DNA from: Armatimonadota bacterium
GTDB taxonomy: Bacteria; Armatimonadota; HRBIN16
Assembly (NCBI GenBank): GCA_963677485.1
Contig: OY781964.1
Coordinates: forward strand, 4,544,001 to 4,608,000
Length of the DNA: 64,000 nt
Direction: 5' to 3'
Position 1 is the first letter of the stretch, and the number at the start of each line of letters is the position of its first letter. Shown here piece by piece: positions 52,869-59,233 of the stretch. A program made the position numbers and the translations under genes. The notes beneath the pieces were generated by a model. That model ran no database searches. It saw only the letters and a list, made by a program, of their open reading frames with translations, and was not told where the DNA came from.

Positions 52869-55800
52869 TTACAACTCCATTTTGACGCTGTTAAGAGATT
52901 TACTTATCTTGTCGATCGTTTCTAGTATGTGCATTTTCGTGAAGGCGTTCAGAGGAGCTTGGTTGATCGCCTTGAGTGCGCTGAGTATCTCCTTGAGCTT
53001 GGCTCTGCAGATGATCCGGCTGTCGACCGTCAAGCCGGTGGTTTCCTTGCTGGCTAGTGCAATAAGTCTGCCAAACCAGGCTTGTTGGAGCATGGCCCGC
53101 AGTTCAGTTACATTTCGTCCAGCGCGAAGCTCAGTGCATATATTGTTGTCAAGTGTGGTGATCAGTTCCATCACGTTGAATACATTCGCCTTAGGTGCTT
53201 GCTTGAAAGCATTATTGGATATCTTGCTGAGCACATCCGGTTGGGTCATCGCATTCAACACGGTGATCTGTGTGCTGCTAAGCTGGTCACGAACAGGCTG
53301 ATCCCACCTGTATGCGGGCGTCGTCGCCACTTCAATGTCCACGAACGGGTTAGGTGCCAGTTTTTGGTAGATGCTAGACGGGATGAAGTCGTAGGCGTCA
53401 GCAGCCAGGCAGCCTTTGGTTATTAGCGACACAACCCTGCGCTGATCGAGGTCAGAGACTTGAGTGAGGCTGGGCTTAGAGTCCATATCCCCCTTATAGT
53501 CCCGATAGGTATGACTACCGCCCAGGAAACCGGCCAGGCTGTAAAACTGGCTGTTGTAGATGCGCAGGAAGCTAATAAACTTGCGTGTCAGTTGGTAGTA
53601 ACTCTGACCCGGCAATATCGCACTGGTCTGTAGTTTCGGGATGGTCTTCTTGCAGATCGACATCATGGTGGAATAGAAATCGATGGGGTTCTTGGCCAGG
53701 TCGAATCTGACTATATGCGGGTCCAGGTTGTCGGCCATTTCATCGCCCTGCCACTGCAAACCCGGCTTTGATGCTTCGGCCGCTATCGCCTTGAGATAGG
53801 GCAATTCGTCTGTTGGATTTTTTGCATCGTTGAATGAATAGCCATACTTGATGGCAAACATATCATATTCCCCGATGTTGTCGCTCCAATACATAGAGTT
53901 CTTGCTTATTAACGCACCGATGTTGAACGGTGTGTAGTCCATGACACTGCTTGTGATGCCGTGTATTTTCAGCCACTCAATGTCTTTGAGCTGCGTCATG
54001 GTGGGGTTAGTGGATGCAATGAAATTGTGTCGTAAACCAAGAGAGTGTCCAAACTCATGCGCCACAATGCTGCGGATATATTGCTGTACATAAGCGTCAC
54101 GGCTGATAGGTGTGGCACCATCAGCCATCATCAACTCTGAGAACTCGCTGCCCATCCAGGCGTTGAACGCACTATCATGCTGATAGCAGCAGCCATATGG
54201 ATTTCCGGTCTGTTTTGGCATGGGACTCAGTTTGGGGTCGGTGGGGACGGCACTCCCAGCGATCATGACATCAAATTCGGTGCCTGTAAATCTAACCATA
54301 TTGGCATCAATGCATATGCCTGCATTCAGTACCTCGCCGGTAATCGGATTACGCCTGAACAGCGATATGGCGTATGCCGCTTCGGGCGATGCCACCCAGC
54401 GCACGATATTGTAGCGCATATCTGCATAATCCCAGTCTGCATTATCAGGCATCTGGTTCACCACTATGGCGTCTTTGATACCGACCTGTTCAAATGCGCG
54501 GTTCCACCACTTCAAACCGGATGCTATGCTCTCACGGTATTCTGAGGGTATCGCATTATCAAGCCACCAGACAATTGGTTTAACGGGTTCACTGATGGCG
54601 GCACTGGGATCTTTCTTTTTAAGGTCCCATCGAGAGATATACCTGACCATGGCATCATCCGTGCGGCGGTTTAAGTCCTGGTATTGCGTGAAGAAATAGC
54701 CGACTCGTCCATCTGCAATTCTAGGAGTATAGTTGCTCTCTGCTAAAAAGAAGAGGTTCCAGCAAATATTGATCGGTATGCTTCGCGGATCATATAGCGG
54801 GTTGCTGTTATATCCACTCATTGAACTAGTTTCCGGACCATCTTTCGACAGCTTCTGCATGTTGATGAGTGATTCCGCCACTATATTGTCAGGAAACACT
54901 TTCAGGTTCTTGATGTAACTCTTCTCACGGTCGATGCTGTAAGCACCTTGATTCAAGCTGGCGGTGGAACTTGTGATATCCGCTAAATCCGACAGAAATA
55001 TGTCCGATATGTTGATCAATAAAGTTTTACGTTCGTCGCTCTTTGCTTCTATCTTGAACGACTGGATGTAGGATCCGGGGAAGGCTCGATCGGCTGCTTT
55101 TGCCAATGGCAACGAGGGATCGACGCGGAATTTCAGATTCGGCACCACCCATACCAGCTTGTCATCTCCCAGCTTTTGCATTTCGAACATGATGTCATCT
55201 ACTGGGTAGCCTGCGACAAGAGATCCTCCGCCAGCACCGCTGCTTAGGGTGCACTGCAGGAGCAGATTCTTTCCGAGCTTCGCCTCCGGCACTTCCAGGT
55301 ATATGGTGTCTTTGTTTCCGGTCTCTGTCTTGCGATAAAGAGTCATGGCCCCATCTAGCTTTTTGAAATCCTTAGTGATCTCTTCGATGGTTTTGTCTTT
55401 TTTCTTTTCGTCAGCAGCGGTCGCAAGTTTAGCGTCGGTGCGTTCCCATTTCAACTTGGCATCCGCGACCGCGTCTCCACCCATGGGGAAGTTCGTGATC
55501 ACCACATCAAGCTTGATGATATCGCCACTTGATGCTTCGATGACCATGTCACCCTGGTAGCTGATGGGTTTGTTGCCAGATTCCGTGTATTTATACTTCA
55601 GTTGTACCGCTGGGATATCTCCCTGCTTCGCGGTATCAACGACTTCATACTCCGATGTGGCGGCCACTGAACCAGGCAGCAGACCGGCCTTGAGTTCCTT
55701 TTTCCACTTCAACCCCTTCACAATAGGTTTATCTGTAAAAATCGGCTGAAGGGCTAGTGCCTTGCGGGCTTGGATGGCCTTAGCCTGGTCGTTCATATCG

Positions 55801-56234
55801 CCGTAGCCTTCCCAGCTGGCCGAGACGAAGGTTCCATCGCGTTTGATGACAGTCATCGCCTTCTGCACCGGTGCATCGTCCTTCTGGGGTACCTTTTCGC
55901 CATTGACAGTCATCTGCACATTTTCGGATGTCGTCGTCCTGCTGATATCTCCGCCTTCGGCGACCGCCGTGACCAGGCGCACGATATCGTAGTGGTTCTC
56001 AATCGTGGCTTTGCCCTCAGGTGTATCTTGCGTGATCGTCAGCTCTGTCTTATACACCGTGCGCCAATTCGGTGCGTACTTATGGATCAACACAAGCGAG
56101 GTGGGCTGATCAGGCTTAGCATCTTTTGTGGCAGCCACCGGTTTAGCAGGTGCCGCCGGTTTAGGTGCCGGTTTGGCGGATACCAGGGAGCAGGCCATCA
56201 CGATGGCACAGGAGACGGCGAAAAGTGACTTCAT
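52869..56234 (-). CDS. Secreted zinc metalloprotease (DUF5117/DUF4953, metzincin-like) with an extra N-terminal domain
   Basis: HEFGHSLGLRHNF zinc motif, Met-turn SSVMDY, PRIADGRVGYF, WNRAFE and NPITGEVL. Signal peptide. Confidence 0.88.
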   Translation of the reverse strand: MKSLFAVSCAIVMACSLVSAKPAPKPAAPAKPVAATKDAKPDQPTSLVLIHKYAPNWRTVYKTELTITQDTPEGKATIENHYDIVRLVTAVAEGGDISRTTTSENVQMTVNGEKVPQKDDAPVQKAMTVIKRDGTFVSASWEGYGDMNDQAKAIQARKALALQPIFTDKPIVKGLKWKKELKAGLLPGSVAATSEYEVVDTAKQGDIPAVQLKYKYTESGNKPISYQGDMVIEASSGDIIKLDVVITNFPMGGDAVADAKLKWERTDAKLATAADEKKKDKTIEEITKDFKKLDGAMTLYRKTETGNKDTIYLEVPEAKLGKNLLLQCTLSSGAGGGSLVAGYPVDDIMFEMQKLGDDKLVWVVPNLKFRVDPSLPLAKAADRAFPGSYIQSFKIEAKSDERKTLLINISDIFLSDLADITSSTASLNQGAYSIDREKSYIKNLKVFPDNIVAESLINMQKLSKDGPETSSMSGYNSNPLYDPRSIPINICWNLFFLAESNYTPRIADGRVGYFFTQYQDLNRRTDDAMVRYISRWDLKKKDPSAAISEPVKPIVWWLDNAIPSEYRESIASGLKWWNRAFEQVGIKDAIVVNQMPDNADWDYADMRYNIVRWVASPEAAYAISLFRRNPITGEVLNAGICIDANMVRFTGTEFDVMIAGSAVPTDPKLSPMPKQTGNPYGCCYQHDSAFNAWMGSEFSELMMADGATPISRDAYVQQYIRSIVAHEFGHSLGLRHNFIASTNPTMTQLKDIEWLKIHGITSSVMDYTPFNIGALISKNSMYWSDNIGEYDMFAIKYGYSFNDAKNPTDELPYLKAIAAEASKPGLQWQGDEMADNLDPHIVRFDLAKNPIDFYSTMMSICKKTIPKLQTSAILPGQSYYQLTRKFISFLRIYNSQFYSLAGFLGGSHTYRDYKGDMDSKPSLTQVSDLDQRRVVSLITKGCLAADAYDFIPSSIYQKLAPNPFVDIEVATTPAYRWDQPVRDQLSSTQITVLNAMTQPDVLSKISNNAFKQAPKANVFNVMELITTLDNNICTELRAGRNVTELRAMLQQAWFGRLIALASKETTGLTVDSRIICRAKLKEILSALKAINQAPLNAFTKMHILETIDKISKSLNSVKMEL

Positions 56235-57410: not shown

Positions 57411-58049
57411 CTACTTGGCTGGAGTGTTCAGTCTTTTTAATACGGGGTCAGTGATATCAATAGCCCCGTAAACTACGTTTTGAGGGTTCATGCTGAAGAC
57501 TAAGTTAATCTTTTGCTCTTTTGCGACAGAAGCAACTGCTACTTTAATGTCAGCAATCAGTGCGAGTCTTTTCTCATCTCGCATGCGAAGAATCGACTGG
57601 TTGGCGTCAGTCATCATTTGTTTGAAGGTGTTTTCATTGTTCGCAGCCTGAGCCCGCATCGTATCGAACTTCGTCTTTTCGTCGGCTGTCATCGCCTGAC
57701 CCTTCGCGGCCAGTACGTTGAAATCAGCAACAAACTGCGTGGCTTTTGCTTCAAGCTCGGTAGATCGCTTTTTCTGAGCGTCATCCTTAGTGGCGGATGT
57801 GACGATCTTGGCGTATTCATCAATCTCTTCGGGAGTGAGCACCAATACTTTTTGCAATGAGTCGAAATTGGCAGTGACCTGATCGTTTTTAGCCTTCAGT
57901 TCCGCCTCCATCGTCTCGCGTTTGGAATATCCATTGATAGCTTTTTCCATATCAATGACGCCGAATACTGCCGATTGGGCAAAACTGGGGATTGAAATCG
58001 CCATCAAAGCGACAGCGATTAGGAGAGCGTGACGCATCATGCGGATCAT
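57411..58049 (-). CDS. OmpH/Skp family periplasmic chaperone
   Basis: Signal peptide, FGVIDMEKA, long coiled coil, VAKEQKINLVF..DITDPVLKRLN. ATG 58049 follows GGAGG. Confidence 0.85.
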   Translation of the reverse strand: MIRMMRHALLIAVALMAISIPSFAQSAVFGVIDMEKAINGYSKRETMEAELKAKNDQVTANFDSLQKVLVLTPEEIDEYAKIVTSATKDDAQKKRSTELEAKATQFVADFNVLAAKGQAMTADEKTKFDTMRAQAANNENTFKQMMTDANQSILRMRDEKRLALIADIKVAVASVAKEQKINLVFSMNPQNVVYGAIDITDPVLKRLNTPAK

Positions 58050-58139
58050 ACAGGTTCCTCCAAATGTCATTACCGGTGCATGTTACCATTCACCATAATA
58101 CGTGACAGATGGCAATATAACAAGGTTACGCGGGGTTTC

Positions 58140-58168
58140 TTGACTTTGCTTACCATAGAAAGTATTAT
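58140..58168 (+). promoter_or_regulatory. Near-consensus sigma70 promoter of the small basic ORF
   Basis: TTGACT (58140-58145), 17-nt spacer, TATTAT (58163-58168). Confidence 0.7.
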
Positions 58169-58211
58169 AGATAGTGTCAGATACGCATGATCACACCGGA
58201 TGGAGTCAGTA

Positions 58212-58328
58212 ATGCAGGGTAAAACCAAAATTCTTCGTGTCCGTCACAAACGGCAACTGGAGATTCAGAAGGCTCGCAAGCGTGCAGGTACCATCGCCAA
58301 AAAGGCAATGAACAAGCACCTGAAGTAG
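58212..58328 (+). CDS. Unannotated 38-aa highly basic small protein MQGKTKILRVRHKRQLEIQKARKRAGTIAKKAMNKHLK
   Basis: GGAG SD (58202-58205) 6 nt before the ATG, own promoter and own terminator. 9 Lys + 5 Arg against 1 Glu. Confidence 0.75.
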   Translation: MQGKTKILRVRHKRQLEIQKARKRAGTIAKKAMNKHLK

Positions 58329-58336
58329 CAGAATTT

Positions 58337-58373
58337 GGGGAGGCGATGTTAATTCATCGCCTCCCCGGTTTTT
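58337..58373 (+). terminator. Intrinsic terminator of the small ORF
   Basis: Perfect 12-bp stem GGGGAGGCGATG/CATCGCCTCCCC followed by GGTTTTT. The U-tract is on the + strand only. Confidence 0.8.
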
Positions 58374-59233
58374 CAAGCTATCCGAAGGTCAAGCCCGATA
58401 TCGCAAGCTATTGCAGAGTGGGTGAGAGCCCCAACTGAAATGATGTCTACCCCAGTTTCAGCAATGGACCACACCGTCTTCAGATTCACACCGCCAGATG
58501 CCTCCAGCTTGCAGCGTCCGTTCACGTATGCCACACACGCCTTCATCTGCGGGAGGCTCATGTTGTCCAGCATGATGATATCGGCCTTTGAGCTTAGCGC
58601 CTCAGTCACCTGATCAAATGTGTCACACTCCACCTCGATGGTCATCGTATGGGGTATGTTTTCTTTTGCACGATTGACCGCGGCGGTGATGCTGCCGGCG
58701 GCAACTATGTGGTTGTCTTTGATCATCACTGCGTCATACAAAGCCATTCGATGGTTGCTTGCCCCGCCAACGCGCACAGCGTATTTTTCAAGGTTGCGCA
58801 ACCCGGGAGTGGTCTTGCGGGTATCACAAATCTGAGCATTTGTGGAAGCCACGGCCTGAACGTATTGCTGCGTCATGCTGCTGATGCCGCTTAACCGCTG
58901 CATGAAATTCAATGAGACTCGCTCACCAGTCAGCAGGCTGCGCGCCCTTCCTGAGATCCGAGCCAATACTGCACCTTTATAAAACACCGCACCGTCTGAC
59001 AGAACTGCTTCTACCAACACATCCGGGTCGATTTGCTTAAACACTTCGTGGACAAGGGGAATGCCACATAGTATGCCGGATTGTTTGGCAATGTAAATGC
59101 CTTCAGCCATAGTATCTTCATCTACTGTAGTGAGTGTGCTGATATCACCAGGCCCAACATCTTCAAGAAGGGCTAAACTTACTATCCGAGAAACTTCAAA
59201 TTGACCAGGCGGAATAATCCAAGCCCTACTCAT
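58373..59233 (-). CDS. nadC: Nicotinate-nucleotide pyrophosphorylase (carboxylating)
   Basis: ALLEDVGPGD, DTRKTTPGLR, MIKDNH, IEVEC, IMLDN and EASGG motifs. ATG 59233 forms an ATGA overlap with mgtC. Confidence 0.96.
   Translation of the reverse strand: MSRAWIIPPGQFEVSRIVSLALLEDVGPGDISTLTTVDEDTMAEGIYIAKQSGILCGIPLVHEVFKQIDPDVLVEAVLSDGAVFYKGAVLARISGRARSLLTGERVSLNFMQRLSGISSMTQQYVQAVASTNAQICDTRKTTPGLRNLEKYAVRVGGASNHRMALYDAVMIKDNHIVAAGSITAAVNRAKENIPHTMTIEVECDTFDQVTEALSSKADIIMLDNMSLPQMKACVAYVNGRCKLEASGGVNLKTVWSIAETGVDIISVGALTHSAIACDIGLDLRIA

Follow-up and report, generated by a model that had tools for sequence, protein, structure and literature searches.

A previously unnamed family of small basic proteins in Armatimonadota, encoded by a stand-alone gene

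A compact gene between ompH and nadC

We analysed a 64,000-nt stretch of an Armatimonadota genome (the window; genome G000). Near the 3' end of the window, an OmpH-family gene and nadC flank a short unit that a sequence-only reading had described as a complete monocistronic gene for a very basic microprotein, with a TTGACT/TATTAT promoter, a GGAG Shine-Dalgarno (SD) sequence, an ATG-to-TAG frame and a 12-bp terminator. The whole unit was in place, T-run included, with each of these elements at the position listed in Table 1. The frame translates as MQGKTKILRVRHKRQLEIQKARKRAGTIAKKAMNKHLK followed by TAG, and the peptide contains nine lysines, five arginines and a single glutamate.

Table 1. Coordinates of the microprotein gene and its neighbors in the window
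Feature	Position	Strand	Details
OmpH-family gene	57411-58070	-	divergent to microprotein ORF
Sigma-70-type promoter-like site (putative promoter)	58140-58168	+	TTGACT 58140-58145, 17 nt, TATTAT 58163-58168
Shine-Dalgarno core GGAG	58202-58205	+	6 nt 5' of ATG 58212
CDS, 38-aa basic microprotein	58212-58328	+	TAG stop 58326-58328; residues 1-26 = conserved family core
Intrinsic-terminator-like hairpin and T-run	58335-58373	+	perfect 12-bp stem 58337-58348 / 58355-58366
NadC (QRPTase_N + QRPTase_C)	58373-59233	-	convergent to microprotein ORF

The promoter-like site agrees with the consensus at 10 of 12 positions and ranks first among seven such sites between 57000 and 59500, a region for which shuffled sequences gave a mean of 2.7. 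Its -35 hexamer is kept in two other species of the genus (G001 and G002), and the -10 hexamer reads TAATAT in G002. At the other end of the unit, the hairpin closes on a TTAATT loop (58349-58354) and is followed by TTTTT at 58369-58373. This T-run is present on the + strand only and shares one base with the stop codon of the convergent nadC. A hairpin is found at the same place in G002, built from other sequence.

A 42-aa form starting from an in-frame ATG at 58200 was considered and rejected. This codon is ACG in G002, a sister species, and the relatives all share a later start, at the M of an MQ or MR pair; we therefore place the start at 58212. Across the whole 5.22-Mb genome, a K/R content of 33% or more together with an SD core occurs in just 21 frames of 25-80 aa, bL36 among them, and only the ORF at 58212 is followed by a perfect-stem terminator. 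The description of a separately expressed-looking gene was thus borne out, as the ORF has its own promoter-like site, SD and terminator and is conserved across species.

Traces of the unit were also found in RNA data. Four metatranscriptome runs hold small parts of a 2-kb stretch around the gene, in contigs of 95-99% identity that come from related strains. The unit is overlapped by contigs in two of the four runs (58160-58310 in X13 and 58227-58441 in X19), at a low depth that could include DNA, while ompH is covered in all four. Such contigs show neither transcript ends nor transcript levels, and the uncovered parts, including most of nadC, carry no information. We regard this as a weak indication of transcription across the unit. 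Apart from these contigs, the strong expression that the sequence-only reading proposed is suggested by consensus signals only. The X19 contig has two extra T in the terminator T-run, at window positions 58368-58369. Elsewhere in the window, at 52869-56234 (-), lies an ORF of 1121 aa whose start resembles a signal peptide and which contains an HEFGH zinc-metalloprotease motif.

Conservation in the genus and class

The frame is retained in G001 and G002, the two other species of the genus, at 97% and 84% amino acid identity respectively, together with the SD, the -35 and -10 hexamers and a hairpin. Beyond these, searches with the single sequence or with a genus profile recovered relatives within the genus only, all other matches falling at E > 0.007; individual searches gave one hit or two loci, and a library of 1.84 billion representatives yielded one relative. 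Because the single-sequence searches saw nothing beyond the genus, we checked what lies downstream of nadC in each of the 18 genomes that make up the window genome's family. This family equals the whole class as sampled, and nadC is present in all 18 genomes. The impression of a genus-restricted orphan proved wrong, as synteny with nadC exposed diverged relatives that those searches had missed.

Seventeen of the 18 loci carry a 32-33-aa ORF behind AGGAG(G) and convergent to nadC, reading MRIRQKELRQRRKRKEEKQKAARREARMRAKRV or a close variant; across these syntenic loci the homologous ORF is preceded by GGAG or AGGAGG. The exception is G003, in which an unrelated stretch follows nadC (L049) and the microprotein ORF lies at a contig end (G003:C78:60-158), pointing to an insertion at the locus or a break in the assembly. 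A profile search found exactly one copy per genome in 18/18 class genomes. The conservation of ORF, SD and synteny that the sequence-only reading had proposed as a check was therefore observed, and so was its expected dN/dS below 1. This ratio was 0.05 between G000 and G001, 0.10 between G000 and G002, and 0.03 between G004 and G006. Within a further genus (g2, 66 pairs), the ratio of nonsynonymous to synonymous differences per site was 0.085.

With frame, SD, both promoter hexamers and hairpin conserved across species, and dN/dS at 0.05-0.10, the conservation is far above chance, and 58212-58328 is almost certainly a real protein-coding gene. The opposing explanation, that the frame is open by chance, with or without a non-coding RNA around it, could appeal to its shortness and to its absence from most gene callers and databases. 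However, synonymous change far exceeds nonsynonymous change, and start, frame and SD are kept across the phylum (see below) while the DNA diverges. Rfam likewise gave no family over 57900-58600, the sole match being a plant miRNA model that aligned below threshold to the terminator hairpin, which we regard as a chance hit. Conservation, the phylum scan and dN/dS together refute this explanation, and we consider it extremely improbable.

Distribution across Armatimonadota

To follow the family through the phylum, we used two profiles: A3, the class profile (11 members), and A6, an N-terminal profile made from 26 diverse members and covering the first 30 residues. A3 found matches in 60 of 401 phylum genomes at E <= 0.003, with every alignment starting from query position 1 or 2. 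Twelve loci from this search all contain an ORF of 38-100 aa, 11 with an ATG and one with a GTG start. A family ORF was also present in all of 20 further regions (15 by the first pattern and five confirmed on inspection), and with five more loci the tally of inspected loci carrying a small family ORF came to 37 of 37 (12 + 20 + 5). Of these ORFs, 34 start with ATG and one with GTG, and many have an SD; those of G021 and G099 possibly have non-ATG starts.

A6 reached further: at E <= 0.005 it matched 208 of 401 genomes, in almost every case once. Every sampled genome matched in families f1 (17/17), f10 (47/47), f26 (20/20) and f25 (6/6), and a majority did so in f28 (28/29), f18 (9/11), f7 (23/32), f21 (20/28), f13 (16/24) and f5 (4/6). 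Matches were in the minority in f6 (2/7) and f4 (9/27). With this profile and among the sampled genomes, the family was not found in f17 (0/12), f19 (0/11), f23 (0/13), f24 (0/15), f15 (0/6), f16 (0/5) or f9 (0/4). The window peptide itself matches A6 at E 1.6e-10 over positions 1-30. On this sequence evidence, the gene belongs to a previously unnamed, single-copy microprotein family that was detected in roughly half of the 401 Armatimonadota genomes.

The shared part of the family is its N-terminal core, which runs from the initiator Met with the consensus M-R-[IV]-R-x-K-E-L-R-x-x-R-K-R-K-E-E-x-x-K. M1 and R14 are invariant; R2, K6, E7, R9 and K20 are conserved in at least 90% of members, and L8, R4 and E16 in at least 80%. 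The conserved positions include acidic residues (E7 at 96%, E16 at 85% and E17 at 73%). Genus g1 deviates from the consensus at seven core positions, which in the window peptide are 2-5 (QGKT), 7 (I) and 15-16 (QL). Past residue 26 the sequence is variable, with a short basic end in the window's class and Ala/Lys/Pro-rich (AKP) tails elsewhere. Queried against three f10 genomes, the AKP tail recovered only itself, a result that is uninformative about other tailed proteins.

When the family alignment was run against 5.8 billion proteins in a word-indexed search, 72 hits came back, and wherever a source gave a name it was "hypothetical protein". Their organism labels are Armatimonadetes, Armatimonadota, Fimbriimonadaceae or Fimbriimonas (the last two on f10 hits), save for one hit that is assigned to Cytophagales by one source and to "Armatim..." by another. 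On the basis of these labels, we place the family in the phylum Armatimonadota. The suspicion of a lineage-restricted protein, raised from the window alone, was thereby upheld, at the level of a phylum.

Gene neighbors vary by family. They include DAO and HD genes, a BioB-like gene, PfkB, GlnA with an XPB-like helicase, and sigma-70 with a 2-hydroxyacid dehydrogenase. Since these neighbors differ between families, we conclude that the microprotein gene stands alone.

Relation to named families and to bS22

No named family was recognized. Pfam and NCBIfam gave no family at E <= 10 for the window peptide or for the 11 A3 members, and PDB profile searches with A3 and A6 returned only chance matches at E ~1, with no bS22 chain among them. 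This agrees with the sequence-only reading, which had recognized no family either. In a protein atlas, the nearest neighbors are unnamed clusters of 33-39 aa only. One atlas lead, DUF6800 (PF20607; 0.86), was rejected, as it is unmatched at the locus and its sole hit in G000 lies elsewhere, a below-cut-off chance match (E 5.8, 10.3 bits). A diverged copy of bL36, bL34 or bS21 was rejected too, because G000 has all three canonical genes elsewhere; PF00444, PF00468 and PF01165 each have one over-cut-off match away from the locus. The literature searched yielded no ribosome structure or small-protein study for Armatimonadota.

The known protein closest in kind is bS22 (Bacteroidota/Borrelia type, 7jil chain 5; mycobacterial/mitochondrial type, PF08213). 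Like the window protein, it is a very basic helical peptide of 30-38 aa, monocistronic, preceded by a strong SD, missed by annotation and patchily distributed among lineages. The window protein could accordingly be a highly diverged bS22 orthologue, of the AURKAIP1/COX24 or the Bacteroidota/Borrelia type, in the same h44/h45 pocket. Size, basic character, predicted helix and a monocistronic, often unannotated gene would all fit. A COX24_C-bearing cluster also appears in the atlas; its score of 0.78 is under lead level, and it was not borne out. Further, we detected no bS22 in the window genome with PF08213 (E <= 10), with a profile of bS22-type peptides described below (A5; E <= 10) or in a scan for hyper-basic ORFs.

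A six-frame search of the whole G000 genome with PF08213 (COX24_C; 23-bit cut-off) gave no match at E <= 10. As a control, the same model scored over its cut-off in one of 14 named genomes, and its sole control hit at E <= 0.01 was Corynebacterium glutamicum. Among 151 phylum genomes, none passed the cut-off and there was one sub-threshold hit, a 32-33-aa ORF in f4 (MLSSDKKKHRRKVKTHW...) that lies just 5' of a TP_methylase-family gene. This peptide, used as query, found matches in 42 of 401 genomes: f4 (27/27), f9 (4/4), f15 (6/6), f11 (1/1) and four others. These copies mostly have a TTG start behind an SD. The profile built from them (A5, "type B") had as its best PDB hit 7jil_5, named ribosomal protein S22, over positions 1-30 of 30. 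The score was modest (E 0.02, 18.3 bits), and the alignment is colinear with a common K-V-x-T-H-x-K-K-R motif. Given this best hit, the colinearity and the motif, we take the type B peptide to be the probable Armatimonadota bS22. One unannotated example, a gene for a bS22-type peptide of 30-33 aa (MSSDKKKHRRKVKTHW...), is found at L089:1495-1596 (+) in G072 of f4, where it directly precedes a TP_methylase-family gene that we take to be RsmI-like; more copies lie at L090-L119.

By contrast with these peptides, the window family showed no sequence or profile similarity to bS22. Compared with A5 by hhalign, A3 reached a probability of 1.9% and A6 of 0.2%, and the family matches neither PF08213 nor PDB bS22 chains. 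Moreover, all five f4 genomes examined hold a window-family ORF of 32-33 aa (for example MARIRQQEIKRRRKRLEERQK...) with its own GGAGG, away from the bS22 locus, and three of these five loci also have a terminator-like hairpin and T-run. An early impression that the two families do not overlap, and that one might replace the other, was undone by A6 and by this direct inspection. From the hhalign values and the presence of both genes in f4 genomes, we conclude that the window family is neither a diverged bS22 nor its replacement. The window family is not bS22, and the bS22/mS38 relationship toward which the sequence-only reading had pointed was not supported. Co-occurrence at separate loci largely refutes the orthologue explanation, which we consider very improbable.

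The two families also differ in character. The window family has conserved glutamates and a conserved leucine, a lower share of K/R, and in many members a long AKP tail, whereas the bS22-type peptides found here have no tails.

Predicted structure and proposed role

AlphaFold2, run with a 54-sequence alignment, modelled the window peptide as one helix over residues 2-37 with a mean pLDDT of 87.5. Foldseek found no match to this one-helix model in the PDB, which is unsurprising when a fold consists of a single helix. Measured around the helix, conservation has a moment of just 0.036 of the total, meaning that it extends over every face. Such a low moment implies constraint on all sides, the pattern that a peptide enclosed by a partner should show. 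In the predicted helix, this even conservation fits enclosure better than it fits a one-sided contact.

From these features we propose the following mode of action. The functional unit would be the N-terminal ~26 residues, forming one continuous Arg/Lys-rich alpha-helix conserved on all faces, and the variable sequence after it would be dispensable. The helix may lodge in a groove or pocket of some conserved and abundant nucleic acid, most probably rRNA. It would then be a lineage-specific ribosomal or ribosome-associated protein that acts beside bS22 rather than replacing it. We rank rRNA first by analogy with unannotated basic helical peptides of the bS22/eL41 type that sit in rRNA pockets, and by that analogy we tentatively favor a ribosome- or rRNA-binding microprotein, with confidence that falls short of even. 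The narrower proposal, of a phylum-specific ribosomal protein that occupies an rRNA pocket in most Armatimonadota, beside bS22 where bS22 exists and with lineage-specific AKP tails reaching outward, we regard as possible and a little more doubtful.

The analogy draws on the bS22 report (10.1101/2023.04.16.537070), which describes bS22 in Borrelia as an unannotated helical peptide with 61% K/R in a 16S/23S rRNA pocket, formed between 16S h2/h27/h44/h45 and 23S H68. The report also treats eL41 and mS38 as its eukaryotic and mitochondrial analogues, presents the latest bacterial ribosomal proteins found (bS22, bL37 and bL38) as tiny, basic and discovered via cryo-EM only, and states that more such proteins are expected (10.1101/2023.04.16.537070). 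eL41 and mS38 are short basic helices inside an rRNA pocket, the mode that we propose the window core helix may share. They differ in that PF08213, to which the homology comparison was limited, is unmatched by the window family. Also in favor of a ribosomal role are the single copy, the deep retention and the stand-alone gene with its own SD and terminator amid variable neighbors, a combination that looks housekeeping-like at the sequence level.

Several observations speak against a ribosomal role. The core has conserved glutamates, and the window peptide contains only 37% K/R, in contrast to the almost purely basic peptides of the bS22/eL41 type. Many members have long Ala/Lys/Pro tails reminiscent of those with which histone-H1-like proteins bind DNA. 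The family is also not a universal component, as it was not found in the sampled genomes of f17, f19, f23, f24 or f15.

Genome-scale measures were no more favorable. By cumulative GC skew, replication would start near 2.14 Mb and end near 4.74 Mb. The gene lies at 4.60 Mb, on the leading strand and close to the terminus, a position that does not argue for high dosage. Its codon adaptation index of 0.80 falls at the 85th percentile of random windows of 38 codons, whether these are drawn from long ORFs or from ribosomal genes. Codon adaptation is uninformative here because the reference median (0.736) is barely off the background (0.722), and the gene is adapted like average genes in a weakly biased genome.

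The AKP tails enter into a different explanation, in which the protein is a small DNA-binding, nucleoid- or transcription-associated protein. Its helix, and in other families its H1-like tail, would cover or bend DNA or hold a partner on it. In f10, f13 and f26, PAAKK/AAPKK-type tails of 10 to ~130 residues follow the core. They share their repetitive AKP composition with HC2 (PF07382) histone-H1-like proteins, and one database hit, P0073, itself carries PF07382 (HC2, histone H1-like nucleoprotein). Another, P0049 (149 aa), joins the family core through an AKP linker to a HARE-HTH domain (PF05066), a fusion that points towards DNA or transcription. The variable genomic context, with no linkage to ribosomal genes, would also be compatible with such a role.

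Yet the conserved part of the family is the 26-residue N-terminal helix, not the tail. HC2 proteins have no such helix, and AKP tails are absent from the window protein and its whole class as well as from f28 and f4. The HARE-HTH fusion is one of 72 hits and lies on a 999-nt contig, and no fused longer form scored among proteins of 176-2000 aa, although this is weak evidence. Finally, conservation is position-specific, includes acidic residues and extends to all faces, which suggests a defined pocket rather than non-specific coating. We consider a DNA-associated role unlikely, yet the chief competitor of the rRNA reading.

Alternatively, the protein may be a regulator that binds a non-ribosomal RNA or a protein, either as an arginine-rich-motif helix on an RNA hairpin or as a modulator of RNA polymerase or an enzyme. 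Arginine-rich-motif RNA-binding peptides are known from phage antiterminators and retroviral regulators. The window family resembles them in having an N-terminal Arg/Lys/Glu-rich helix of ~20 residues with a variable remainder, a likeness of composition only. One charged helix in which E, L and R positions are conserved, encoded by a stand-alone gene, would suit a regulator. In one lineage, spoVG lies immediately upstream, and in P0068 the SpoVG ORF is read through into the microprotein.

Unlike the arginine-rich-motif peptides, the window family is cellular, phylum-wide and single-copy, and no cognate RNA hairpin was found by Rfam in the region searched around the gene. There is also no conserved neighbor or partner gene across families, and broad single-copy retention is more typical of a component of core machinery. 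A regulatory role is in our view rather improbable.

Implications

The phylum-wide family described here is new, and its general kind is familiar. It has gone unseen by every curated profile library and is under strong purifying selection in over half of the species sampled from a poorly studied phylum. If ribosomal, it would add a component to the bacterial ribosome and provide a marker for Armatimonadota; if instead it acts as a nucleoid protein or RNA regulator, it would represent a new minimal nucleic-acid-binding module. Either way, annotators gain a concrete profile, and for experimenters a 33-aa peptide is easily synthesized. Gene callers systematically miss tiny basic proteins. A genome-wide scan for basic small ORFs also returned, outside the window at G000:C1:4496377 (+), a 37-aa Lys-rich ORF (MGEKSPKKEVKSPKK...) with an SD core.
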